Below are positions 6,030 to 26,831 of a stretch of 54,534 nt of DNA, piece by piece. The DNA is taken from contig CAZBQL010000005.1 in the NCBI GenBank assembly GCA_964493985.1, forward strand, positions 1 through 54,534, in the 5' to 3' direction. The position numbers were made by a program, and so were the translations under genes. The notes below the pieces were generated by a model that worked only from the letters and a program-made list of their open reading frames with translations, was not told the DNA's origin and searched no databases. Numbering within the stretch: the stretch's first letter is position 1; each line of letters begins with the position of its first letter. Source of the stretch: an uncultured Dehalococcoidales bacterium. GTDB taxonomy: Bacteria; Chloroflexota; Dehalococcoidia; Dehalococcoidales; UBA2162.

Positions 6030-7967
6030 CTAATCCATGTTTTCTATTGTCACCGGCTCAATGTAATCGGCCGTTTCGAAGCCGAATATCTTCGAGTAGA
6101 AGTACAGTTCGGCATCCAGTGCCCGTTTGATATTCTCCGCTTTCCTGAAACCGTGCTGTTCTCCTTTGAACAGGAGATAGGCGACCGGGATACCTTTTTC
6201 ACGGAGAGCATTTACCATTAATTGCGCCTGATTTGGCGGCACGACTTTATCCTCGTCACCCTGAAAAAAGATTACCGGGCACGACAGTTTATCGACATGA
6301 TGAATCGGGGAACGTTCGATAAATACATCCCTTTTCTCAGGATAGGGCGCAACAATGCGGTCAAGGTAGCGTGATTCGAACTTGTGCGTATCCGTTTCCA
6401 GTGCTTCAAGGTCGCTGACACCGTAATAACTGGCTCCCGCCCTGAATACATCACGAAAAGCCAGGGAAGCCAGGGTGGTATAGCCACCGGCACTGCCGCC
6501 GCGGATAGCGGTTCGATTTCCATCCACTTCCCCCTGTTCTATGAGATACCGGGCACAGTTCGCGCAGTCGTCTACATCGATGATCCCCCACATGCCGTCC
6601 AGTCTCCGGCGGTATTCCCTTCCGTATCCGGTGCTTCCGCCATAATTCACATCGGCAACGGCGAAACCTCGGCTGGTCCAGTACTGGATGGACAGACCGA
6701 ACGAGTCGTAAGTTGCACTGGTAGGTCCGCCGTGGCTCATCACTATCAATGGCGGTTTTTCACCGGCTGGCGCTGCGAAATCAGCGTTTTTCGGCCTGTA
6801 AAAGAAAGCATGGGCAGTTAGTCCGTTCTCAGTGGGAAACTCTATCGCTTCAGGGATGGATAAATATCCGGCACCTACGTTAATATCAGTAGCCCTGCGT
6901 AACACCTCTGTTCTCCCGGTAGACAGGTCGAGTCTCACCACCGAATCAGTCTCGGTTGGTGAAGCAGCCAGGAAAACCGCGTAACCCGGAGTGGTTTTAA
7001 TCGATGAAAAGGACGAATACCGAGTTTCAATACGCCTGAACTCCAGAGTCTCCGTATCAAGGATTGCCATATACGATTCACCGCTCTGAGAATAGGTGCA
7101 AAGTATTCGTTTTTCAGATTCAAAAGCATAGGTGGACTGTCCGAAAACCCAGTGCGGGCTTCCGAACTCCGCTTCCATATCACAGAGTGGTTCGATATTT
7201 CCGTTCCTGTAACGATAAAGGTTCAGCCAGCCGGTCCTCTCGGAGAGAAAATACAGCACGCCGTCTGGAGAATATTTCGGTTCGGAAACCCATTCATCAC
7301 TCCCACCGGCCAGTTTTTCAGGATTGATGATACTGCTATTTTTATCTATCTCCGCTACCCATAACTCTGTGTAGTCCCAGGGCATATTCGGGTGATTCCA
7401 GGTGGTCCAGGCAAGTTGAGAACCATCCGGGCTGATCCGGGGAGACGAGTAGAAATCATTTCCCGCTACGAGTTTAGTTACCGTTCCAGTACCGCTGAGA
7501 TCCACCGCCGCGATAAAGTTCTCCGGTTCCTTATCGTTTCTCGTGTGGTCTTCACAGATACAGATAATTCTATCCCGCTGCCGGTCGATAACGCCGTCGG
7601 CATAACGCATATTTCCTTCAGGCGTGAGTGGCGATGGCGGAGAACCGGGTTCCTGCTGGTAAATACGCTGGTCTGAAAAGTTCGAAAAATAGACCGTATC
7701 CCTGTCGATTAAACAGGCACCGCCGCCATACTCGTGAACACGTGTCCTGGCATTGTACGGTTTCGGATTTACATCCGAAGCAGTACCGTCCCCGGAACAA
7801 CGTACCAGAACGTAACGTCCGGCCTCTGCGGGTCGCATCTCGATCCAGTATATATCATCACCGGCTATCTCAAGGTACCCGTCGAATCTGATCGAAGACG
7901 ATGATACAAGCTCCGAGGTTATCATCGATTTCCATGAGCCGTATCCGGCTGTCTTTACTTCTGCCAT
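6030..7967 (-). CDS. S9 family peptidase (prolyl oligopeptidase / acylaminoacyl peptidase)
   Basis: HGGPT, GGSAGG nucleophile elbow, QGDEDKVV, EQHGF triad; beta-propeller N-terminus; likely start MAEVKT at 7967. Confidence 0.92.
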   Translation of the reverse strand: MAEVKTAGYGSWKSMITSELVSSSSIRFDGYLEIAGDDIYWIEMRPAEAGRYVLVRCSGDGTASDVNPKPYNARTRVHEYGGGACLIDRDTVYFSNFSDQRIYQQEPGSPPSPLTPEGNMRYADGVIDRQRDRIICICEDHTRNDKEPENFIAAVDLSGTGTVTKLVAGNDFYSSPRISPDGSQLAWTTWNHPNMPWDYTELWVAEIDKNSSIINPEKLAGGSDEWVSEPKYSPDGVLYFLSERTGWLNLYRYRNGNIEPLCDMEAEFGSPHWVFGQSTYAFESEKRILCTYSQSGESYMAILDTETLEFRRIETRYSSFSSIKTTPGYAVFLAASPTETDSVVRLDLSTGRTEVLRRATDINVGAGYLSIPEAIEFPTENGLTAHAFFYRPKNADFAAPAGEKPPLIVMSHGGPTSATYDSFGLSIQYWTSRGFAVADVNYGGSTGYGREYRRRLDGMWGIIDVDDCANCARYLIEQGEVDGNRTAIRGGSAGGYTTLASLAFRDVFRAGASYYGVSDLEALETDTHKFESRYLDRIVAPYPEKRDVFIERSPIHHVDKLSCPVIFFQGDEDKVVPPNQAQLMVNALREKGIPVAYLLFKGEQHGFRKAENIKRALDAELYFYSKIFGFETADYIEPVTIENMD

Positions 7968-8136
7968 GTTATCCACCTGACTTAAATTTACCAACATTAT
8001 ACTACATACTACCCAGGGGGTAAGGTTTCATTCACGAAATAATTACCAACTTAATGCATTTATGAATTTGAGGAGTATTATATAAAGTGATACAATTTCG
8101 AAGGTAATCGTTAATACGGAAGAATTATCGATAATT

Positions 8137-8430
8137 ATGAATAAACGAGTATGGGTTTTTATCCTGAAAGCAGGAAAGTGGATCGGTAAAGTTCTGTCTC
8201 ATCTTCTGCCGAAAGGAGATATGTACCAGGAAATCCATGTTTCTCCTAATAAACAACCCGAACCGACCTTACGCCGGTATTCATACCTGCGGAGTCATGG
8301 CATCAGGTGTAAACTCCATAACCTGACATCACCCAGCGGGAGAGGCGTCGTCGCCGGAATGATCAGTCTTCGTGTCCACCGTAACGATATCGGTAGAGCC
8401 TACACTTTACTCAGGAATATGAACGATTAA
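8137..8430 (+). CDS. Small hypothetical protein, weak DUF2007-like pattern
   Basis: YLRSHGIRC...SLRVHRNDIGRAYTLL pattern; ORF fills the gap between convergent genes. Confidence 0.4.
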   Translation: MNKRVWVFILKAGKWIGKVLSHLLPKGDMYQEIHVSPNKQPEPTLRRYSYLRSHGIRCKLHNLTSPSGRGVVAGMISLRVHRNDIGRAYTLLRNMND

Positions 8431-9239
8431 CTACCCGTCGAATGATAGTGCCGGACGCCGAATTTCCATACCTTCAGCGAAACCCAGAGGAATATCAGCC
8501 CGATCAAAGGAGAGATCCATTGAAACCAGACAGGTGTGTTGAGAGGGTCTGATTTTCCCATTATAGCCAGGGCGGGGAAATAATTGACGCAGGCAAGCGG
8601 GATAATGAATACGAATATTCCGGCGAACCAGCGCTTATATATCGGAAGAGGCCACTGGACGGCTTCCACTCCGCCATACGTGAAAGAATTCATCACCTCC
8701 AGGCTCTGGGTAGACCAGAAGCACATCGTCGCCTGAAGTATCAGCAGTCCGGTAAAAACACAGACGTTTCCCGCAACCGAGATAAGCAGCAGCAATACCT
8801 TGGCAAAATCCCAAGTTATATCGAGACTGACAGAAGCCCAGATAAGAATACTCAGGCCCTGGAGCAGCCTGCCAGCCCTGAATAACAGGAAGTCATGCGC
8901 CAGTACCTGCAGGGCTGTCGAACGGGGACGCAGCAGCGTCCTGTCGAACTCGCCGTGTATGACCTGGAGATTGAAGTGGTCGAAACCACGACCGAACGCT
9001 TCGGTTATCGCCCACCCGACATTGACGAGACCATAAAATAATGCCACTTCTTCAAGTCTCCAGCTCTGGAGTGAACCGAATCTGGAAAACAGGACTACAA
9101 TTCCAATAAACTCGATAAAGGTTACAATGAAATTTCCGATCGTCATCAGGACGAAGGAAGCCCGGTACTGAAGCTGACTTCTGATATTTATTTCGATCAG
9201 CCTGAAGTATACCTTCACTGAGTCGATAATATTATCCAC
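8427..9239 (-). CDS. ABC-2 family exporter permease (DUF990 type)
   Basis: SQLQYRASF, GEFDRTLLRP, YPL.IY-like WPLPIY; about 6 TM helices. Confidence 0.88.
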   Translation of the reverse strand: MDNIIDSVKVYFRLIEINIRSQLQYRASFVLMTIGNFIVTFIEFIGIVVLFSRFGSLQSWRLEEVALFYGLVNVGWAITEAFGRGFDHFNLQVIHGEFDRTLLRPRSTALQVLAHDFLLFRAGRLLQGLSILIWASVSLDITWDFAKVLLLLISVAGNVCVFTGLLILQATMCFWSTQSLEVMNSFTYGGVEAVQWPLPIYKRWFAGIFVFIIPLACVNYFPALAIMGKSDPLNTPVWFQWISPLIGLIFLWVSLKVWKFGVRHYHSTGS

Positions 9240-11800: not shown

Positions 11801-12607
11801 TTATCCTGTTCGACTATGTGATTTACTGAAAGGATATTCCGCATCATCAAATGCATGATCACTCTCGAAGCTAATTTCCTGAAGAAATCCCAATTTCTTG
11901 AGTCGTACTCGTGCGGCAGCCATAGAAACATCGAATGATTCAGCAATCAGATCGGCAAATTCTGCCGCTTCATCGGAATCAGTCGAAAGCCAGTACCGAT
12001 CGGAGAATCTTTTTAAAAAGTCTTCGGCCATTTTCTTTAATGGACTTAGCGGCATCAGGAAGGCACCGCAGGCATAACTTGCCTGCCACTCCATCCAGTC
12101 TTCGAGCGGCGCGTCGATGATACAACTGCTTTTGCACCTGGGATTTATCTCGAGTATGGTACGATTGAACTTCCTGTACAGCCGGCTGTATTTTCCGGTG
12201 CATATGACGGCATTCTCTGGATTCTCCCATCGGTTTAATTCCCAGAGGAAGGTATGGAATTTGACGTGGCCGTATTCATGGGCGAGTGTCGTCCGAAGCC
12301 GGTGTTCTTTCCAGTCATCGAGTGTCAGGTCCGCTGAGATTTTTACCGCCGGTTTCCTGTCAGGAAAGAAGTCCGTCAACCCTTCAACGTCTTCACCGAA
12401 ACCGGACAGGTCAGCAAACAGATCCAGGTCCGAGGTATCTTCCTCAATCATCACCGTCAGGTCATCGGTGGATATTGGGAAACAGCATACTCCATATTTT
12501 CTTTCCAGGAACCGGGATACTATCCTCTCGCACTCGAGATCGAGTTCTCCCCGGTCATAGTACGGTCGCAGTCTGAACCGGCCGGTCTGGTCGGCTACCC
12601 ATTTCAT
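11801..12607 (-). CDS. ImmA/IrrE family Zn metallo-endopeptidase
   Basis: RLRTTLAHEYGHVKFH (HExxH), EWQASY..GAFLMP, FDVS..AARVRL; ATGA overlap with the upstream XRE gene. Confidence 0.88.
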   Translation of the reverse strand: MKWVADQTGRFRLRPYYDRGELDLECERIVSRFLERKYGVCCFPISTDDLTVMIEEDTSDLDLFADLSGFGEDVEGLTDFFPDRKPAVKISADLTLDDWKEHRLRTTLAHEYGHVKFHTFLWELNRWENPENAVICTGKYSRLYRKFNRTILEINPRCKSSCIIDAPLEDWMEWQASYACGAFLMPLSPLKKMAEDFLKRFSDRYWLSTDSDEAAEFADLIAESFDVSMAAARVRLKKLGFLQEISFESDHAFDDAEYPFSKSHSRTG

Positions 12608-12936
12608 CGTTCCTGACCACCTTCGCCTCTGCGATAACTACGGGCAAATGCCTTGAAGGCTTCCCGTACCTGGGCGGGATTGTTAGGGGAATCACTGCGG
12701 TATTTCGGTGGTATCTCGTTTGCCAGGAAATAGAAGTATTCTTCCGGTACTTCGAGTACCTTCGCGAACTGGTTGATAAGGTATTCACCCGGTGGATTAC
12801 GGCGATCCCTCTCGATATCGTTCAGGTACTGTGGTGATATAGGAGTACTGTCTTCTTTCAATATCATCGAAGCCAGTTGTTTCTGACTCAGTTTCTTTTC
12901 TTTTCTCGCCTCAGCAACAGCCTGTCCAAAAGTCAT
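12604..12936 (-). CDS. XRE-family HTH transcriptional regulator
   Basis: MTFGQAVAEARKEKKLSQKQLA...ISPQYLNDIERDRRNPP; AGGAG RBS before ATG 12936. Confidence 0.9.
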   Translation of the reverse strand: MTFGQAVAEARKEKKLSQKQLASMILKEDSTPISPQYLNDIERDRRNPPGEYLINQFAKVLEVPEEYFYFLANEIPPKYRSDSPNNPAQVREAFKAFARSYRRGEGGQER

Positions 12937-12961
12937 TATAGCGCTCCTGAAAAAAGGATAT

Positions 12962-13002
12962 GATACGCTAATCAGCATATCTGCTGGAGAGGCTTTTGTC
13001 AA
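12962..13002 (-). promoter_or_regulatory. Promoter of the XRE-ImmA operon with an overlapping imperfect palindrome (candidate operator)
   Basis: TTGACA (13002-12997), 17 bp, TATGCT; palindrome GATATGCT-N4-AGCGTATC at 12962-12981. Confidence 0.6.
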
Positions 13003-19112: not shown

Positions 19113-21173
19113 ATGTTCAAGTTTCTTCGACCTAAAGCAACACTCACTGAACGTGAAGTGCAATCCGGATTACGCTGGGTAACGATCGAAGGTGCCGTAT
19201 CGATGGGCTTCTTCAGTATTACAACCAGCGGGATTCTTGTGGCCTACGCTCTGGCCTTAGGAGCTGAGAACTTCCATATAGGTATACTCGCCGCTATACC
19301 TTTTATCATGCAGATTATCCAGATACCCGCTATCTTGCTCATCGAAACGGTCAGGCGGCGTAAATTGATCTCAGTCCTTTCATGGTTTTTTGCCCAGTTA
19401 TGCTGGTTCCCTATTGCGTTAATTCCCTTTTTTCTACCGATACCCGGAACAGCAGCTATTATGCTGCTTATCGGGATAATGGCTTTCAGGGGTATTCTAA
19501 GCGCTATATGTAATGCATCCTGGAACAGCTGGCAGCGTGACCTTATACCACAAAATATTCTCGGCAGGTTCTTTTCGAAACGCATGGCTTATGCAACTGC
19601 CTTTGCTGCAGTTTTCAGTCTTGTTTCTGCCGTATTCATCGATTACTGGAGGAACTCTTCCTTACCGGAAAACACCGCGTTCGGCTATACATATGCGATA
19701 CTGTTCGGAGCCTTGTTCCTCGGGCTCGCCAGTGTATTTTTTATGTCCTTGATTCCAGAACCTCTCATGCAACCGGTAACCGGACCACAACCGTCTCTCA
19801 GGGAGAGATTAGCAGCTCCACTCCGTGATTCTAATTTCAGGCGACTGTTGCGTTTCCTGTTTTACTGGAGTTTCGCTTCCAACCTGGCAATTCCCTTCTT
19901 TGCAGCCCATATGCTCCAGACACTGGGCTTGTCTGTTGTCTGGGTAATAGGACTCAGCATCCTGAGCCAGATATTCAATATCCTGTTTTTACGAGTCTGG
20001 GGACCGTTAGCCGACCGGTTCAGCAACAAGGTTGTCCTTTCAATCGGCATTTCACTCTATCTCCTGGTAATAGGGGGATGGATATTTGTTACCTTACCTG
20101 ACAGGTACTTTTTAACCATACCATTGCTGATAATACTGCATATTTTCGCCGGTATTGCCAGTGCTGCGGTTTCATTCACCGTGGGTACTATCGGATTGAA
20201 ACTGTCTCCTAAAGGCGAAGCAACTTCCTATCTCGCCAGCGCTTCTCTTGCAACCAACATCGGCGCCGGACTTGGTCCGGTAGCAGGAGGTTTTCTCGCC
20301 GACCTCTTCTCAACCCGGCAGCTAAATTTTACCCTCACCTGGATCGATGCTTCCAGCACAATTAATCTGCCGTTTCTCAGCATAACCGGACGTGATTTCC
20401 TGTTCGGTATAGCCTTCATCCTGGGAATATTAACCCTGGGGATGCTTGCCAGTATTCGCGAAGAGGGCGATGTCGCAAGAGAAGTGGTCCTGAAATCGCT
20501 TTACGAGCCTATTAAAGATATATCACGACCGATGAGTACTGTTCCCGGGCTTACGTTCCTGGCTGATCTACCCCTCAATTTTTTCAAACGGGTACCGCCC
20601 GGTCTTGATGTAGCCCTGGGAGTGACTATTTACGAGATAGCAGAAATGGCCAAGGCTACAGCCCTGGCAGCTACCCGGGGACGTAATATCACACAGAGGA
20701 TGGCTTCGGACCTGGGTAAAAATATAACACGCTATGGGCGTTCACGCAGGAAACTCAGAGAACACGGTACGGAAATCGTCCAGCACACAGTTCGCGGCGC
20801 GATGCATGTTGTCGACGAAAAACCGGTGAATATGGACAAGTTGATAGAACAGGTTGTTGAAGGTGTTATCACTGCCTCGAGTGAAGCCGGGATGGATTCA
20901 CGCGATTCACTGATGGGAGCCAGCCAGGGAGTTGTCCGGGGAGCGGTAGAAACCGGGGTAGATGTAACCGAAGCAGTTAAGATAACCATGAAAACTGTAA
21001 AGAAAGCATCTGAAGGAATAGGAGTCTCCGAAAACGAGGCTTTATCCATTGCAGCCGAGGGGGTACTTCTGGCAGCCGAACCCCTTGGTTCCAAGGTTGT
21101 AGCCGAAGTAGTTGACGCGGTTCCGGAGGAAAACCTCCCGATGGCACACGATGAGCCGGATGATAAGTCTTAG
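19113..21173 (+). CDS. MFS transporter with a long C-terminal helical-repeat extension
   Basis: About 12 hydrophobic segments, WGPLADRFSNK MFS motif; roughly 190-aa soluble tail with 22-aa repeats. Confidence 0.85.
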   Translation: MFKFLRPKATLTEREVQSGLRWVTIEGAVSMGFFSITTSGILVAYALALGAENFHIGILAAIPFIMQIIQIPAILLIETVRRRKLISVLSWFFAQLCWFPIALIPFFLPIPGTAAIMLLIGIMAFRGILSAICNASWNSWQRDLIPQNILGRFFSKRMAYATAFAAVFSLVSAVFIDYWRNSSLPENTAFGYTYAILFGALFLGLASVFFMSLIPEPLMQPVTGPQPSLRERLAAPLRDSNFRRLLRFLFYWSFASNLAIPFFAAHMLQTLGLSVVWVIGLSILSQIFNILFLRVWGPLADRFSNKVVLSIGISLYLLVIGGWIFVTLPDRYFLTIPLLIILHIFAGIASAAVSFTVGTIGLKLSPKGEATSYLASASLATNIGAGLGPVAGGFLADLFSTRQLNFTLTWIDASSTINLPFLSITGRDFLFGIAFILGILTLGMLASIREEGDVAREVVLKSLYEPIKDISRPMSTVPGLTFLADLPLNFFKRVPPGLDVALGVTIYEIAEMAKATALAATRGRNITQRMASDLGKNITRYGRSRRKLREHGTEIVQHTVRGAMHVVDEKPVNMDKLIEQVVEGVITASSEAGMDSRDSLMGASQGVVRGAVETGVDVTEAVKITMKTVKKASEGIGVSENEALSIAAEGVLLAAEPLGSKVVAEVVDAVPEENLPMAHDEPDDKS

Positions 21174-21323
21174 CAAGGTTGAATCGAAGAGTAATACACC
21201 TGAGTATATGCAATCTCCCATTATGTACTACATAAATATGACAATAGTCATATCCGTAACTCAGTCACGAGCGTATAATTGCGGTACACTTGAGAATAAA
21301 TTATGATAATTTGGAGGTTGTCA

Positions 21324-21578
21324 GTGACTGAAATAGTAGTTGACTGCACTGGCGAAACGTGCCCTGTACCCTTAGTTGAAACGCGTAAAGCCCTTCGAAA
21401 GGCCGCTGACGGTGATATCGTAGAGATTATTGGTACACATCCGGCTTCAAAGAAAGAAATCCCCATGGCTGTAAAGGCTTTAGGTCTGAAACTCCTGGGT
21501 ATAGAAGAATCCGGTGACACATGGAAAATCAGGATCCAGAAGGAAAAGGAGAGTCAGGATGGCCGAACAGCAGGATAA
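21324..21578 (+). CDS. tusA: TusA/SirA-family sulfur carrier
   Basis: VDCTGETCPVPLVETRKAL (CPxP); GTG start at 21324 after GGAGG. Confidence 0.9.
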   Translation: MTEIVVDCTGETCPVPLVETRKALRKAADGDIVEIIGTHPASKKEIPMAVKALGLKLLGIEESGDTWKIRIQKEKESQDGRTAG

Positions 21579-21987
21579 AGCCACAATAGTCGTTCACAGT
21601 GGCGATATGGACAAGCTCTATAGCGCCCTCATCATAGGAAACGGCGCCCTCGCTATGGGTATGGATGTATCACTGTTTTTCACCTTCTGGGGACTCCAGC
21701 GACTTAAAAAAGGCGGACTGGAGAAAGGGCCGTTATCAAAAATGAATATGTTTGGCCTTGGAAAACTCATGGTTAAGATGAAAATGAAGAAGCAGAACGT
21801 GGCTTCTCTCGAAAGAATGATGCAGGATTTCAAAGAACTTGGCGGGAAGATAATGGCCTGCGATATGACAATGGATATCATGGGTATTAAACCTGAAGAC
21901 CTTCGCCAGGACCTGATAGGAGATTACTGTGGAGTGGGGACGTACCTGGACGAAGCGAGAAATTCGAAAATTACCCTCTTTATCTAA
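21559..21987 (+). CDS. DsrE2-type (DsrE/F/H-like) sulfur relay protein
   Basis: ALIIGNGALAMG.DV.LFFTFWGL...IMACDMTMDIMGI; likely start MAEQQ at 21559, overlapping tusA. Confidence 0.88.
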   Translation: MAEQQDKATIVVHSGDMDKLYSALIIGNGALAMGMDVSLFFTFWGLQRLKKGGLEKGPLSKMNMFGLGKLMVKMKMKKQNVASLERMMQDFKELGGKIMACDMTMDIMGIKPEDLRQDLIGDYCGVGTYLDEARNSKITLFI

Positions 21988-21998
21988 ACCGGAGGGAA

Positions 21999-23171
21999 AT
22001 GATGCTTAATGAAAATCAGGTATACATGGACAACTCGGCAGCAACCCGGCTGGATGAAAAAGTACTGGATGCGATGAGACCCTACTTTTTCGAGCAGTAT
22101 GCTGTAGCTACATCTGAGTTCGCTTATTCTCAGGGAATAGAGGCCGGTGAAGCCCTTGAAGGAGCCAGGACGGTCTTAAGTGGAAAACTCGGTGGTACTC
22201 CTGAAGAGTTTATATTCACATCCGGCAGTACCGAATCATCTAATATTGCCCTCAAAGGTATGGCAATGACTGCTAAAAAGGGCAAGCATTTGATAATATC
22301 AAAAATAGAGGACTTCCCCGTATTGAACAGCGCAAAGGCTATGGAAAAACTGGGATATTCGGTTACGTATCTTGATGTTGACGGTGACGGATTCATAGAC
22401 CTAAAGACATTGGAAAAGGTTATAACGGATGAAACGTTCCTCGTTTCTATCCAGCACGCCAACCAGGAGATAGGTACTATACAGGACATAGGAGCAATCG
22501 GAAAAATCTGCAAGGAAAAGGGAGTGCCGTTTCACACCGACGCCACTCATACCTTCGGAAGGGTCCCTATCGATGTAAAGAAAGTACCGGTGGACCTGAT
22601 AACGGTGTCAGCGCACACCATTCACGGTCCGAAGGGTATAGGTGGCTTGTACATCCGTAAGGGGACGAAGCTGGGCAAGTGGATGGATGGCGGGTTCCAG
22701 GAATTCGACCTCCGTGCCGGATTTGAGAATATACCGGGCGCTATCGGCTTCGCCAGGGCTATTGAGCTGATAACGGAAGAGGAAACAGAAAAACTGCGGC
22801 AAATGAGAGACCATATCATCGACCGAATACTTTCCGAAATACCGGATGTAACATTGAACGGTCACCGGGAAAAACGGCTTCCGCAAAATGCAAACATCTC
22901 CTTCCACTACATCGAAGGTGAATCGATCACCCTGCATCTTGATATGCATGGTTACGCCGTAAACACCGGTTCGGCCTGTTTCAGTCGATCGCTGGAAGGA
23001 AGTCATGTTATATTCGGCATCGGCGGCGATCATGAAAGAGCGCATGGCTCAATACGGTTTACATTCGGAAGGTATAACACCATGGATGAAGTAGACGGTA
23101 TTGTGGACAGGCTGGGCGAGATAGCCGATGAATTAAGAAGTATCAGCCCGCTTGCCCCGGACAAGGATTAA
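21999..23171 (+). CDS. iscS: IscS/NifS-like protein with a degenerate PLP site
   Basis: Class V aminotransferase fold (YMDNSAAT, FTSGSTES, GSAC loop Cys), but SAHTIHGPKG in place of SxHKxxGPKG. Confidence 0.85.
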   Translation: MMLNENQVYMDNSAATRLDEKVLDAMRPYFFEQYAVATSEFAYSQGIEAGEALEGARTVLSGKLGGTPEEFIFTSGSTESSNIALKGMAMTAKKGKHLIISKIEDFPVLNSAKAMEKLGYSVTYLDVDGDGFIDLKTLEKVITDETFLVSIQHANQEIGTIQDIGAIGKICKEKGVPFHTDATHTFGRVPIDVKKVPVDLITVSAHTIHGPKGIGGLYIRKGTKLGKWMDGGFQEFDLRAGFENIPGAIGFARAIELITEEETEKLRQMRDHIIDRILSEIPDVTLNGHREKRLPQNANISFHYIEGESITLHLDMHGYAVNTGSACFSRSLEGSHVIFGIGGDHERAHGSIRFTFGRYNTMDEVDGIVDRLGEIADELRSISPLAPDKD

Positions 23172-23184
23172 AAGGAGGAAATTA

Positions 23185-23820
23185 ATGAAATCACCATACA
23201 CTGAAACGGTCCTGGAACATTTTCGTCACCCCCATAACGTAGGTAAAATAGAAAATGCCGATGGCAAAGCCCAGGAGGGCAGTCCCGCCTGTGGCGACAT
23301 GGTGGCGGTATATATAAACGTAGATGAAAAAACCAAAGTAATCGAGGACGTCAAGTTCGAGTCATACGGGTGCGCCTCCAATATAGCCACCGGGTCGATC
23401 ATAACCGACCTGGCAAAGGGAAAGACTATCGATGAAGCAAAGAAAATATCCTGGAAAGACGCATCGGACGCTCTCGGCGGATTGCCCAAGATAAAAGCTC
23501 ATTGTTCGGTACTGGCTATCGAAGGACTGAGATCGGCCATAGAAAATTACGAGGAAAGGCACGGCCTTGTCAAGGACAGGAAACCGACAAACATCGAAAC
23601 GGTGCGTACCCGCCTGAAGAAAGTAATGAATCCGATGGCTGGACTGGACCTGGTAAGAACTGAACTTGTCGAAGGCATCTCTGTGAAAAACGGTACAGTC
23701 AAGGTATCCATCTCTCTTCCGCCGGACCATCAATTCGCTCCGGCGATCAAGGAAGAGATCATGGAGAAAATCGAGCCACTGTGGGACGTGAACGAGGTTA
23801 TCGTAGAATTCACGGACTAG
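23185..23820 (+). CDS. iscU: IscU/NifU-N scaffold fused to a C-terminal DUF59/MIP18-like domain
   Basis: GSPACGD, FESYGCAS, KAHCS (three Cys); C-terminal LKKVMNP..GLDLV...V domain; AGGAGG RBS before ATG 23185. Confidence 0.88.
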   Translation: MKSPYTETVLEHFRHPHNVGKIENADGKAQEGSPACGDMVAVYINVDEKTKVIEDVKFESYGCASNIATGSIITDLAKGKTIDEAKKISWKDASDALGGLPKIKAHCSVLAIEGLRSAIENYEERHGLVKDRKPTNIETVRTRLKKVMNPMAGLDLVRTELVEGISVKNGTVKVSISLPPDHQFAPAIKEEIMEKIEPLWDVNEVIVEFTD

Positions 23821-23879: not shown

Positions 23880-24116
23880 ATGTTTCATATGTGGGACTGG
23901 AGTGCAGGAATGGGCTGGTGGATGGGATTCGGTGTTATCTTGATGATACTCTTCTGGGGAGCAGTTATTGCCCTTATCGTTTGGGTAGTAAAGAGGTTCA
24001 CCGGAGGCACTGACTCTAACAGGAAAAACGATCCGCTTGACATAGCCAGAGAGCGTTATGCCAGGGGAGATATATCCAAGGAAGAATTCGATCAAATTAA
24101 AAAAACCCTTTCATAA
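23880..24116 (+). CDS. SHOCT-domain membrane protein
   Basis: One TM helix followed by [27 protein letters not shown]. Confidence 0.88.
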
Positions 24117-24136: not shown

Positions 24137-26782
24137 ATGCCTGAAAAGACATCAGCGAAAAAAGAAAAGGCGAATATCATTGTCACCGGAATGACCTGTA
24201 CCAACTGCGCCGCTACCATAGAGAAGGGCCTGGCCGAAACCCCCGGCGTAGACAAGGCAAATGTCAATTTTGCTTCGGAAAAGGCATCCGTCGAATACGA
24301 CCCTGAAAAGGTCGATCTCAAAACACTTCATAAGACCATATCAGAACTCGGGTATGGTATAGCCACGAAAAAGTCCGTTTTCCCCGTCAGCGGGATGACC
24401 TGCGCGTCCTGTGTCGCACGAGTCGAAGAAGCGTTATCAAGTGTTCCCGGGGTAGTCTCTGCCAATGTTAACCTGGCCTCGGAAAAGGCAACAGTAGAAT
24501 ACACCGAAGGGACGAGTATAACTGATTTAAAGGCAGCAGTACACGATGCCGGCTATGAGTTAGGTTCAGAAGCCGAAACACTTGAAGATGTTACCGCGGC
24601 TTCACAGCGTGAGTTACGTGGTGTCAGGAACAGGTTTGTTTTTGCCGTCGTCCTGGCGGCGGTCATCATGCTGCTGATGTGGCTGCCGGATTTCACCGGT
24701 AAAAAATACCTGCTGTGGGCTCTGGCGACGCCGGTACAGTTCTGGGCGGGGCTTCGTTTTTACAGGGGAGCCTGGGGAGCGCTGAAACACCGGACAGCCG
24801 ATATGAACACGCTGGTAGCCGTCGGCACTTCGGCAGCATATTTCTATAGCGTGGTCGCCGTTCTGTTTCCCGGTGTCTTTACCGGCACCGGCGTAGAAGT
24901 GGCGCTGTATTTCGATACTTCGGCGATGATTATCGCCCTCATACTTCTCGGCCGGTTCCTGGAGACCCGAGCCCGTGGTCAGACATCGGAAGCTATAAAG
25001 AAACTGATAGGGCTGAATCCGAAAACAGCGCTTGTCGTACGCGACGGTAAGGAACAGGAAATCCCGGTAGATGAAGTCCTGGTCGGGGATATAATATTGG
25101 TCCGTCCCGGTGAACGAGTGCCTGTGGATGGGGTAATCCGCGAAGGATACTCCAGTATCGACGAGTCGATGATAACCGGAGAGAGTATTCCCGTAGAGAA
25201 GAACGTCGGAGATGAAGTGATTGGCGCTTCTATCAACAAGACCGGCAGCTTCAGGTTCGAAGCGACGCGTGTTGGTAAGGATACCACCCTTGCCCGTATC
25301 ATCCGGCTGGTTGAAGAAGCTCAAGGAAGCAAGGCGCCTATCCAGCGGCTGGCAGATATCATTGCCAGTTATTTCGTGCCAATGGTCATAAGCATATCGA
25401 TCATCACATTCATAATCTGGTATTTCGCCGGACCGCCGCCGGCTCTTACGTACGCCCTGCTTAATTTCGTGGCTGTGCTGATCATTGCCTGCCCCTGCGC
25501 GATGGGACTGGCAACACCCACCGCCATTATCGTTGGTACCGGTAAGGGCGCTGAACATGGTATTCTGATACGCAGCGCTGAGACGCTTGAAAAAACGCAC
25601 AAGATAAACACGGTAATGCTGGACAAGACCGGAACTCTGACGCGGGGCGAACCCATGGTAACCGACGTCATTCCGGCACTATCCAGAGCCTACATCCTGA
25701 AAATGGCAGCCGCCGCAGAGTATGGTTCGGAACACCCGCTGGGCGAAGCTATCATAAGAGCAGCCACGATGGAAGGCCTGGAATTACCATCCGCTTCCGG
25801 TTTTAACGCCATCCCCGGACAGGGAGTAGAAGCAGTCATCGATAAACAGAATATAGTCCTGGGAAATCTCAGGCTCATCAATGATAAAAATTTGTCCCTT
25901 AACGGACTAAATGACGAAGCGGAAAAATTCCGTAATGAAGGCAAAACGATAATGTACCTGGGGACTGACGGAAAAGTTGAAGGTATTATCGCGCTTGCCG
26001 ATACATTGAAACCGGATGCTGTCGCTTCGGTAAAAGCACTGCAGGATATGGGCACCGAGGTGGTGATGGTGACAGGTGACAATTCCCGAACAGCCGAAGC
26101 TATTGCACGTGAGGCGGGAATAGACCGTGTCCTGGCTGAGGTACTACCCGAGAACAAGGCAGAAGAAGTAAAGAAATTACAGGAACAGGGCAGGATGGTC
26201 GCGATGGTCGGCGACGGCATCAACGACGCCCCGGCACTTGCACAGGCAGACGTAGGAATAGCCATCGGCACCGGCACGGACGTGGCTATGGAGACGGGAG
26301 ATATTACCCTGATAAGCGGCGACCTCGGGGGAATAGCCACTGCTATATCATTGAGCAAACGTACCGTGAGGACGATAAAGCAGAACCTGTTCTGGGCATT
26401 CGCCTACAACACGGTGCTGATACCGGTTGCGGCGGGAGTGCTGTACCTGGTATTCCATAACGGCGGAGTACCTTCAGGACTGCATTTTATCCTTGGTGAC
26501 TATGGTTTTCTCAATCCGATCCTGGCGGCAGCAGCGATGGCTTTAAGTTCTATCACGGTGGTATCGAACTCACTCCGGCTCAAGAGATACAGGCCGGTAA
26601 AAATAAAATCAAACATGGGAGGTAACACAATGGCAAAGGCAATAGACCCGGTGTGCAAGATGGAAATCGAGGAGAGTTCCGCAGCGGCAACTTCGGAATA
26701 CAAAGGGAAGAAATACTATTTCTGCGCCAAAGGCTGCAAGGTAGCCTTCGACAAGGACCCGCAGAAGTATCTGGCCGGGTAA
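24137..26782 (+). CDS. copA: Cu(I)-translocating P1B ATPase with two HMA domains and a C-terminal YHS domain
   Basis: [40 protein letters not shown]-terminal DPVCKM...YYFCAKGC. Confidence 0.95.
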
Positions 26783-26800: not shown

Positions 26801-26831
26801 AAAAAGGACGTGATTTCTCACGTCCTTTTTT
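26801..26831. terminator. Bidirectional intrinsic terminator
   Basis: AAAAAGGACGTGA-TTTC-TCACGTCCTTTTTT. Confidence 0.85.

Follow-up and report, generated by a model that had tools for sequence, protein, structure and literature searches.

How is sulfur supplied to iron-sulfur (Fe-S) cluster assembly in strict anaerobes without an active cysteine desulfurase? This is an acknowledged gap, and a 2026 review of Fe-S sulfur sources (PMC13066941) describes MIS as the least studied system and the sulfur route of minimal systems as unclear. The question is raised here by a 54,534-nt stretch of DNA (hereafter, the window; contig CAZBQL010000005.1 of assembly GCA_964493985.1) from an uncultured Dehalococcoidales bacterium. 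Four co-directional genes fill positions 21324-23820 of the window and encode a TusA-like protein, a DsrE-family protein, an IscS homologue without the Schiff-base Lys (hereafter, IscS*), and an IscU fused to a DUF59 domain (IscU::DUF59) (Table 1). The tusA and dsrE genes overlap by 20 nt, in line with the tight coupling claimed by the original prediction for this locus, the iscU gene starts 13 nt past the end of iscS*, and a GGAG-type ribosome-binding site precedes each of the four genes. We see about an even chance that this cassette is a MIS-type IscS-IscU machine that works without pyridoxal 5'-phosphate (PLP) and is fed by TusA/DsrE2B-like sulfur carriers.

The reading starts from the residues of IscS*. 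The position of the Schiff-base Lys (K206 in E. coli, Asp199 in Archaeoglobus fulgidus) is occupied by Thr207 (ACC, 22617-22619, in SAHTIHGPKG), the stacking His is replaced by Asp105 (GAC, 22311-22313, in IEDFPV; H104D in E. coli numbering), and a Gln is replaced by His184 (CAT, 22548-22550, in DATH; Q183H). These three substitutions, from which the original prediction had argued, were borne out codon by codon and in the alignments. The E. coli numbering was checked only by K206 landing in the Lys column, and the equivalences H104D, Q183H, and K206T were read from an alignment to 129 relatives chosen for having Lys at that position. At the PLP-ligand positions now occupied by Asp105, His184, and Gln156, these relatives had His (99%), Gln (97%), and Asn (95%). 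The earlier claim that RAGF (residues 239-242) stands for RSGT was right for one residue and not for the other: Phe242 lies where desulfurases carry the phosphate-binding Thr243, and only this Thr-to-Phe change is meaningful because true desulfurases can have A/S/P/G where the Ser stands. Beyond the changes first predicted, we found N35V, M151Q, N155Q, and a 2-residue insertion in the pocket, as well as the DUF59 domain of IscU; the fixed changes specific to the family include N35V, the 2-residue insertion, H104D, M151Q, N155Q, Q183H, K206T, and two residues after the loop Cys.

Among the PLP ligands His104, Gln183, Asn155, Thr243, and Asp180, only the Asp is kept (Asp181). IscS* also keeps H206, T78, and R353, together with the mobile-loop Cys327 (TGT, 22977-22979, in GSAC; C328 in E. 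coli numbering), which matches A. fulgidus Cys321, and the C-terminal L379/R380/S383 (E. coli numbering). With the Lys, the stacking His, Gln183, Asn155, and Thr243 all replaced, the sequence supports the prediction that IscS* would be unable to bind PLP canonically. Because the PLP site is replaced, IscS* should be unable to make persulfide from cysteine.

The IscS fold is intact in the model of IscS* predicted with AlphaFold2 (mean predicted local distance difference test score, pLDDT, 92.8), which superposed on NFS1, E. coli IscS, and A. fulgidus IscS with template modelling (TM) scores of 0.92-0.94 and root-mean-square deviations of 1.2-1.5 Å. The uncertain parts of the model were the N-terminus and the Cys loop (326-329), and the low pLDDT of the latter is as expected for a flexible loop. 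The best solved match of IscS* was A. fulgidus IscS2 in 4EB5 (E 3e-102). All NCBIfam desulfurase cut-offs were missed, including those for NifS (TIGR03402; 438 vs 530.75 bits) and IscS (TIGR02006; 362.6 vs 643.2 bits).

The substitutions are neither decay nor unique to this genome, as indicated by the low ratio of nonsynonymous to synonymous substitutions (dN/dS) and by the family-wide signature, and the original prediction of selection was upheld. The Nei-Gojobori dN/dS of iscS* against three relatives was 0.03-0.06, while the other three cassette genes had 0.03-0.08 (0.05-0.08 for tusA and 0.03-0.04 for dsrE), values like those of the MFS and copA genes on either side. We collected 199 distinct members of the IscS* family, with a mean pairwise identity of 78% and a minimum of 66%. 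D105, Q152, Q156, D181, C327, and R353 were invariant among them, and H184, T207, and H206 were conserved at ≥99% (Thr207 in 198 of 199). Of the 14 former PLP/substrate-pocket positions, 12 were conserved at ≥98%, vs 40% of all positions (binomial p = 7e-4), so the pocket was remodelled and then frozen. The two relaxed positions are phosphate binders, namely S203 (S or A) and T243 (Leu in 82% and Phe in 9% of the family). The survey shows that Lys-less IscS proteins, hitherto treated as an archaeal curiosity from A. fulgidus, are a large and strongly selected group that is also found in several phyla of anaerobic bacteria. The NCBI and JGI annotations of members in the sets P0001-P0120 and P0271-P0390 read 'cysteine desulfurase', 'cysteine desulfurase NifS', or 'cysteine desulfurase family protein'; on Lys-less sequences, these names are probably functional mis-annotations.

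The partners of IscS* retain the residues on which sulfur or cluster handling would depend, and the TusA CPxP Cys, the DsrE ACDM Cys, and the three IscU Cys named in the original prediction are all present, as is the loop Cys. The TusA protein scored 81.5 bits against PF01206 (cut-off 28.6) and fell below the NCBIfam equivalog cut-offs for TusA (39 vs 78 bits) and YedF (48.6 vs 79 bits), with TM0983 and YeeD/TsuB as its best solved relatives. The DsrE protein scored 127.7 bits against PF13686, and its best solved relative was 2QS7 from S. solfataricus, whose conserved Cys aligns with Cys101. As 2QS7 is named as DsrE2B in PMC11094781 and the NCBIfam DsrE2 cut-off was missed (73.4 vs 210 bits), the protein is better called DsrE2B-like than 'DsrE2', the earlier label. 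The IscU part (PF01592, 142 bits) has Cys36, Asp38, Cys63, His106, and Cys107, and the C-terminal DUF59/FeS_assembly_P domain has zero Cys. IscU scored below its equivalog cut-offs (TIGR03419, 150 vs 187.9 bits; TIGR01999, 116 vs 192 bits), and its best solved relative was A. fulgidus IscU in 4EB5 (E 9e-39).

The distribution of the cassette was profiled by scanning one genome per species, which gave 541 relatives, and the best 80 loci (69-92% identity; L001-L080) were analysed. All of these 80 loci show the D/H/T(S) signature. Their record titles assign 54 to Dehalococcoidia, 6 to other Chloroflexota, 6 to Thermodesulfovibrionales/Nitrospiraceae, 7 to Syntrophales or 'delta' proteobacteria, 3 to Atribacterota, 1 to Clostridia, and 3 to archaea-labelled metagenome-assembled genomes (MAGs), counts to be taken with care given that MAG labels are automatic. 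The order tusA-dsrE-iscS*-iscU::DUF59 on the same strand was found in ~74 of the 80 loci and in at least five phyla, with Chloroflexota, Nitrospirota, Syntrophales, Atribacterota, and archaea-labelled MAGs among the hosts, based on tblastn because the gene caller often swapped tusA for an antisense open reading frame (ORF). The survey of homologues and neighbourhoods that had been proposed at the outset therefore shows that neither the substitutions nor the arrangement is confined to this genome. The orthologues also retain TusA Cys13 (73/74), DsrE Cys101 (78/78), and the three IscU Cys (79-81/81). The flanks are heterogeneous, with 136 and 135 Pfam families among the 130 and 122 neighbouring genes, and given the conserved order within such flanks, the four genes behave as a self-contained unit. 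Rare but suggestive neighbours in these flanks included HcyBio/COG1900 for sulfide-dependent homocysteine synthesis (3 loci), Thi4 (2), FdhD (3), hybrid-cluster protein (3), radical SAM (4), and rubrerythrin (9).

Variants of the cassette carry an iron/Fe-S theme. A rearranged cassette in an Anaerolineae locus (L064, 7200-7685) has ferritin between iscS* and iscU, and a solitary iscS* lies among rubrerythrin/ferritin-like, ferredoxin, glutaredoxin-like, and ferredoxin-thioredoxin-reductase::rubredoxin genes in two others (L026, 4880-8337; L063, 4183-7659). In a Dehalococcoidia subclade, one or two paralogues of Asp/Glu/hydantoin-racemase-family genes (PF01177, ~220 aa) are inserted between iscS* and iscU (L014, L017, L027, L032, L043 at 7241-8637, L059, L062, and L065).

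To see the family among its relatives, we used a library clustered at 50% identity, in which it is one full-length representative (68% identical) and two fragments, with the next identity at ≤50%. The Lys is absent in 21 of the 150 best representatives, including these three, and the loop Cys is retained in all Lys-less representatives that cover the loop. A neighbour-joining tree of 146 representatives, which has no support values and uses no likelihood method, tentatively groups most of the Lys-less sequences in one clade, among them the window family, its nearest sisters, the A. fulgidus type (H-A-D pattern), P0125, and P0131. Gene orders in other Lys-less lineages were IscS*-IscU::DUF59-TusA, ferredoxin-TusA-IscS*, and IscS*-TusA, and the Lys-bearing control locus had IscU only.

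The association of carriers with Lys loss was tested in an unselected sample of 80 metagenome loci (L087-L166), chosen by similarity to the A. fulgidus-type group with the Lys state ignored. TusA was encoded within 2.5 kb of 6 of the 8 Lys-less IscS genes, vs none of the 75 Lys-bearing ones (Fisher p = 7.4e-8), and one of the two exceptions is at a contig end. The orders in this sample included TusA-DsrE-IscS*-IscU, TusA-IscS*-IscU, and IscS*-IscU-DsrE-TusA, and the IscU::DUF59 fusion was found in 2 of 66 IscU hits, both adjoining Lys-less IscS. A functional coupling of TusA/DsrE to IscS* is thus well supported by gene content and order. It is Lys-less IscS, not active IscS, that is linked to the TusA/DsrE carriers, which appears to be new, as does the wide presence of this link in anaerobic bacteria. 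The literature searched yielded no report linking TusA/DsrE to Lys-less IscS or combining TusA, DsrE2, IscS, and IscU, and the 2026 review (PMC13066941) mentions no TusA/DsrE-coupled form.

The closest characterised system is the IscS2-IscU pair of A. fulgidus (PDB 4EB5, 4EB7, 4HVK, 4R5F). Like IscS*, to which it is ~45% identical, A. fulgidus IscS2 has no Schiff-base Lys, keeps the loop Cys, and is encoded directly upstream of IscU. As summarised in PMC7585200 and PMC13066941, it has no PLP and no desulfurase activity and its Cys ligates a [2Fe-2S] cluster on IscU, properties known for the A. fulgidus protein only. The two differ in the pocket: A. fulgidus IscS2 shows the pattern HDAND, in which the stacking His is kept, the Lys is replaced by Asp, Gln183 by Ala, His205 by Asn, and Arg354 by Gln. 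Members of its subclade vary at the Lys position (D/T/G/Q/S/P/A), in contrast to the fixed D105/H184/T207 of the window family. A. fulgidus IscU also lacks the DUF59 fusion, and no TusA was detected in the IscS2 locus. The locus (AE000782.1, ~512.0-513.9 kb; L167, 4638-6616) does have a short DsrE-family gene with a conserved Cys (in MMVCDRSS) 10 nt upstream of iscS2, with iscU following; further upstream lie FeoB, called in fragments, a repressor of the iron-dependent type, and FdhD, which is split. In Ferroglobus placidus, the order is TusA-IscS*-IscU.

The window family itself is already in the literature, uncharacterised, as Methanosarcina acetivorans IscS1. The isc1 cluster reported by Deere et al. 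2020 (PMC7585200) consists of MA0810 (SirA-like), MA0809 (DrsE superfamily), MA0808 (IscS1), and MA0807 (IscU1), and as SirA-like corresponds to TusA, the four-gene order is the same as in the window. The published alignment shows IEDFPV, ATH, SAHT, and GSACFS in IscS1, which is ~66% identical to IscS* based on a sequence machine-read from the figure, and the 24.2 kDa of IscU1 fits a DUF59 fusion. The host is archaeal and the flanks are different (a HIT protein and a hypothetical protein). The authors noted the missing PLP residues of IscS1, suggested a role like that of A. fulgidus IscS, and referred to the neighbouring genes as 'genes of unknown function'; IscS1 proved insoluble as a recombinant protein, and M. 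acetivorans also has an active IscS2 (PMC7585200). No other mention of MA0807-MA0810 was found in the literature searched. The carrier link extends to the prototype from A. fulgidus (DsrE) and to the genetically tractable M. acetivorans (both carriers), and it points to specific candidates for the sulfur donor and to a handful of Cys residues.

In E. coli, PLP-active IscS passes sulfur on to TusA for use in the thiolation of tRNA and the synthesis of molybdenum cofactor. The E. coli IscS-TusA complex (PDB 3LVJ; TM score 0.92 to the IscS* model) pairs the same two families, and contact in the window is likewise predicted between the Cys of the IscS mobile loop and that of the TusA CPxP motif. 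At the TusA-contact position W45 of E. coli, the window has Ile47. Because IscS* should be unable to generate sulfur, any flow would have to be reversed relative to E. coli or bypass IscS*. The cassette is also like MIS (MisS-MisU), which was defined by Garcia et al. and is reviewed in PMC13066941 as an IscS-like and IscU-like pair of anaerobic bacteria and archaea without HscAB, IscA, ferredoxin, and IscR. MIS is described as a cysteine desulfurase and a scaffold alone, whereas in the cassette the MisS-like protein lacks the desulfurase residues, two carriers are added, and the scaffold is fused to DUF59. In the DsrE3A/DsrE2B/TusA relays of sulfur oxidisers (PMC4175335, PMC11094781), the genes for TusA and a DsrE-family protein are likewise neighbours, and the active-site Cys are conserved; the sulfur there goes to dissimilatory oxidation (sHdr, rDsr), whereas the acceptor in the window would be an Fe-S scaffold, and no Dsr or Hdr genes were found in the flanks of the cassette, judged by the 25 most frequent Pfam families there.

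Taken together, these comparisons suggest how the cassette could work. The picture follows the relay of the original prediction, in which the sulfur would derive from sulfide or polysulfide and not from cysteine. IscS* keeps the fold, the dimer- and IscU-binding C-terminus, and the flexible Cys327 loop, which would let it dock IscU and swing Cys327 into the scaffold as in the A. fulgidus complex; it would have lost sulfur generation, and the lost chemistry would be supplied in trans by the co-translated sulfane-sulfur carriers TusA (Cys13) and DsrE2B-like protein (Cys101). The carriers may hand the persulfide to Cys327 of IscS* or straight to IscU, the reverse of the IscS-to-TusA flow of E. 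coli. The cluster could then be built on Cys36, Cys63, and Cys107 of IscU, with Cys327 of IscS* completing the ligands as the fourth, in the manner of A. fulgidus. The DUF59 domain of the fusion, which belongs to a family tied to Fe-S delivery, may help to pass the cluster on. We infer persulfide carriage, the direction of transfer, and cluster ligation, and the supply of sulfur by the carriers, from gene anatomy and association.

Several observations weigh against this relay. No uptake or sulfide-oxidising gene that could point to the sulfur source recurs beside the cassette: YeeE/TsuA, rhodanese, SQR, Sox, Dsr, and Hdr were not among the 25 most frequent Pfam families in the two flank censuses (130 and 122 genes). 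Four Dehalococcoidia loci (L041, L049, L051, and L055) have a canonical IscS-IscU pair with Lys (H, Q, K) ~1.5 kb downstream on the opposite strand (e.g., L041, 8757-10294, minus strand). This canonical IscS is 43-45% identical to IscS*, so at least some genomes have IscS* as a paralogue beside a true desulfurase. The neighbouring enzyme could be the true donor to TusA, which would make the system cysteine-dependent; among the window ORFs scanned, no second desulfurase or Suf genes were found. The Lys-less lineages P0131 and P0153 and the locus L165 have IscU and no TusA nearby. The DsrE2B prototype of M. cuprina was inert in vitro to NaSH, GSSH, polysulfide, thiosulfate, and tetrathionate as well as to sulfite, and accepted nothing from DsrE3A or TusA (PMC4175335). 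Finally, the conservation of the pocket hints at more than a purely passive adaptor role would explain.

Plausible though unlikely is that IscS* serves only as a structural partner and fourth cluster ligand, with sulfide entering chemically and TusA/DsrE either loading IscU directly or serving other acceptors (tRNA, molybdenum cofactor via FdhD, homocysteine, thiazole). This agrees with the description of A. fulgidus IscS as giving a ligand, not sulfur (PMC7585200 and PMC13066941), and with the Lys-less lineages that have no TusA nearby. FdhD, HcyBio, and Thi4 suggest possible other acceptors, and FdhD is found upstream of the operon in A. fulgidus as well; these neighbours are rare, however, at 2-3 of ~125 genes each. 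A ligand-only role would also leave unexplained why TusA adjacency is confined to Lys-less IscS and why the four genes form a module with translational coupling.

We regard as doubtful the alternative that the conserved pocket has been rebuilt as a new ligand site (D105, Q152, Q156, H184, and T207, with D181, H206, and R353) that could hold Fe(II) or a different metal, or else sulfide/persulfide. The loop with Cys327 would then still shuttle between the pocket and IscU and, with TusA/DsrE, form a distinct cysteine-independent route to Fe-S clusters. If so, it would bear on where minimal systems get sulfur, and possibly iron, in several anaerobic phyla and in archaea.

It is rather improbable that the cassette is a conditional system for copper, sulfide, or oxidative stress, acting in Fe-S repair/assembly or sulfane-sulfur buffering and co-regulated with copper export in the window genome. 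A CopA gene lies within the fetched flanks, mostly directly downstream, in ~18 of the 80 loci, including Syntrophaceae, Anaerolineae, and Atribacterota, hinting that copper export and Fe-S assembly may be linked. In the window, the terminator scan found no terminator between iscU and the SHOCT and CopA genes. A palindrome upstream of tusA, present only once in the window, recurs in L001, L002, L003, L005, L006, and L044 with conserved arms and a variable 4-nt spacer, and all of these loci have CopA downstream except L001, whose contig stops just past the SHOCT gene. Rubrerythrin, superoxide dismutase, hybrid-cluster protein, Hsp20, and DnaJ are among the neighbours, a canonical IscS-IscU coexists in several genomes, and M. 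acetivorans, which has three isc clusters, grows without IscSU2 (PMC7585200). Against this, most loci have no CopA linkage and those that do are mostly from the nearest relatives within Dehalococcoidales, which may reflect inherited synteny; no regulator that senses copper was identified. In M. acetivorans, MA0808 is among the proteins listed as detected in proteomes, and consistent detection is described for IscS2 and IscU2 only (PMC7585200). A stress role would in any case tell when the cassette acts, not how, and is compatible with the relay mechanism.

Very improbable is that IscS* is still an enzyme whose pocket binds PLP or pyridoxamine 5'-phosphate non-covalently, or another cofactor, and mobilises sulfur from cysteine or another small thiol. 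The unusual conservation of the pocket (12 of 14 positions) would fit, as would the retention of D181 (the pyridine-N partner), H206, T78, and R353 (the carboxylate binder). Yet six PLP/substrate contacts are replaced, including the stacking His by Asp, the phosphate-binding Thr243 is now hydrophobic, Ser203 is S or A, every NCBIfam desulfurase cut-off is missed, and the nearest characterised relative is without desulfurase activity (PMC7585200). A decaying or mis-assembled, functionless desulfurase, which has nothing in its favour beyond the lost catalytic Lys, is ruled out by the dN/dS of 0.03-0.06, the intact frame, the confident fold model, and the same substitutions fixed in 199 sequences from several phyla.

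Table 1 Cassette genes and neighbouring features, with positions in the window.
Feature	Position	Strand	Description
Palindrome ATATGAC-AATA-GTCATAT	21236..21253	+	Perfect palindrome; candidate operator, ~70 nt upstream of tusA
TATAAT	21274..21279	+	Candidate -10 box, ~45 nt before the tusA start; read from sequence
tusA	21324..21578	+	84 aa; GTG start after GGAGG; Cys13 in CPVP; PF01206, E 4e-23
DsrE2B-like sulfur carrier	21559..21987	+	142 aa; Cys101 in ACDM; PF13686, E 5e-37
iscS*	21999..23171	+	390 aa; IscS fold without PLP Lys; PF00266, E 4e-69
iscU::DUF59 fusion	23185..23820	+	211 aa; PF01592, E 1e-41, and PF01883, E 2e-14
SHOCT-domain small membrane protein	23880..24116	+	PF09851; 59 nt past iscU
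CopA-type P1B ATPase	24137..26782	+	Two HMA domains, CPC motif, C-terminal YHS
13-bp hairpin	26801..26830	.	A and T runs on its sides; first terminator-like site after tusA

The SHOCT gene is probably co-transcribed with the cassette, and the transcription unit probably ends with copA. In the promoter/terminator scan, whose hits were fewer than those in shuffled sequence, only the hairpin downstream of copA is convincing, and no full consensus promoter was called upstream of tusA.

Elsewhere, the window is ordinary bacterial chromosome that encodes RecA, RecX, RNase Y, PlsY, and MutS2, and no tRNA or Rfam family was found anywhere in the window. The closest relatives are Dehalococcoidia MAGs. 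Directly upstream of the cassette, an MFS transporter (19113-21173) has a hydrophilic C-terminal extension of ~250 residues with no Pfam match, which is conserved in L001 (90% identity). At 11801-13002, an HTH_3 (XRE-type) gene adjoins an M78-peptidase (ImmA/IrrE-like) gene, and such pairs are typical of mobile-element or stress-response switches. Near the window end (52784-54346), a 520-aa protein combines an eCIS_core domain with a DUF6782 putative metallopeptidase region.

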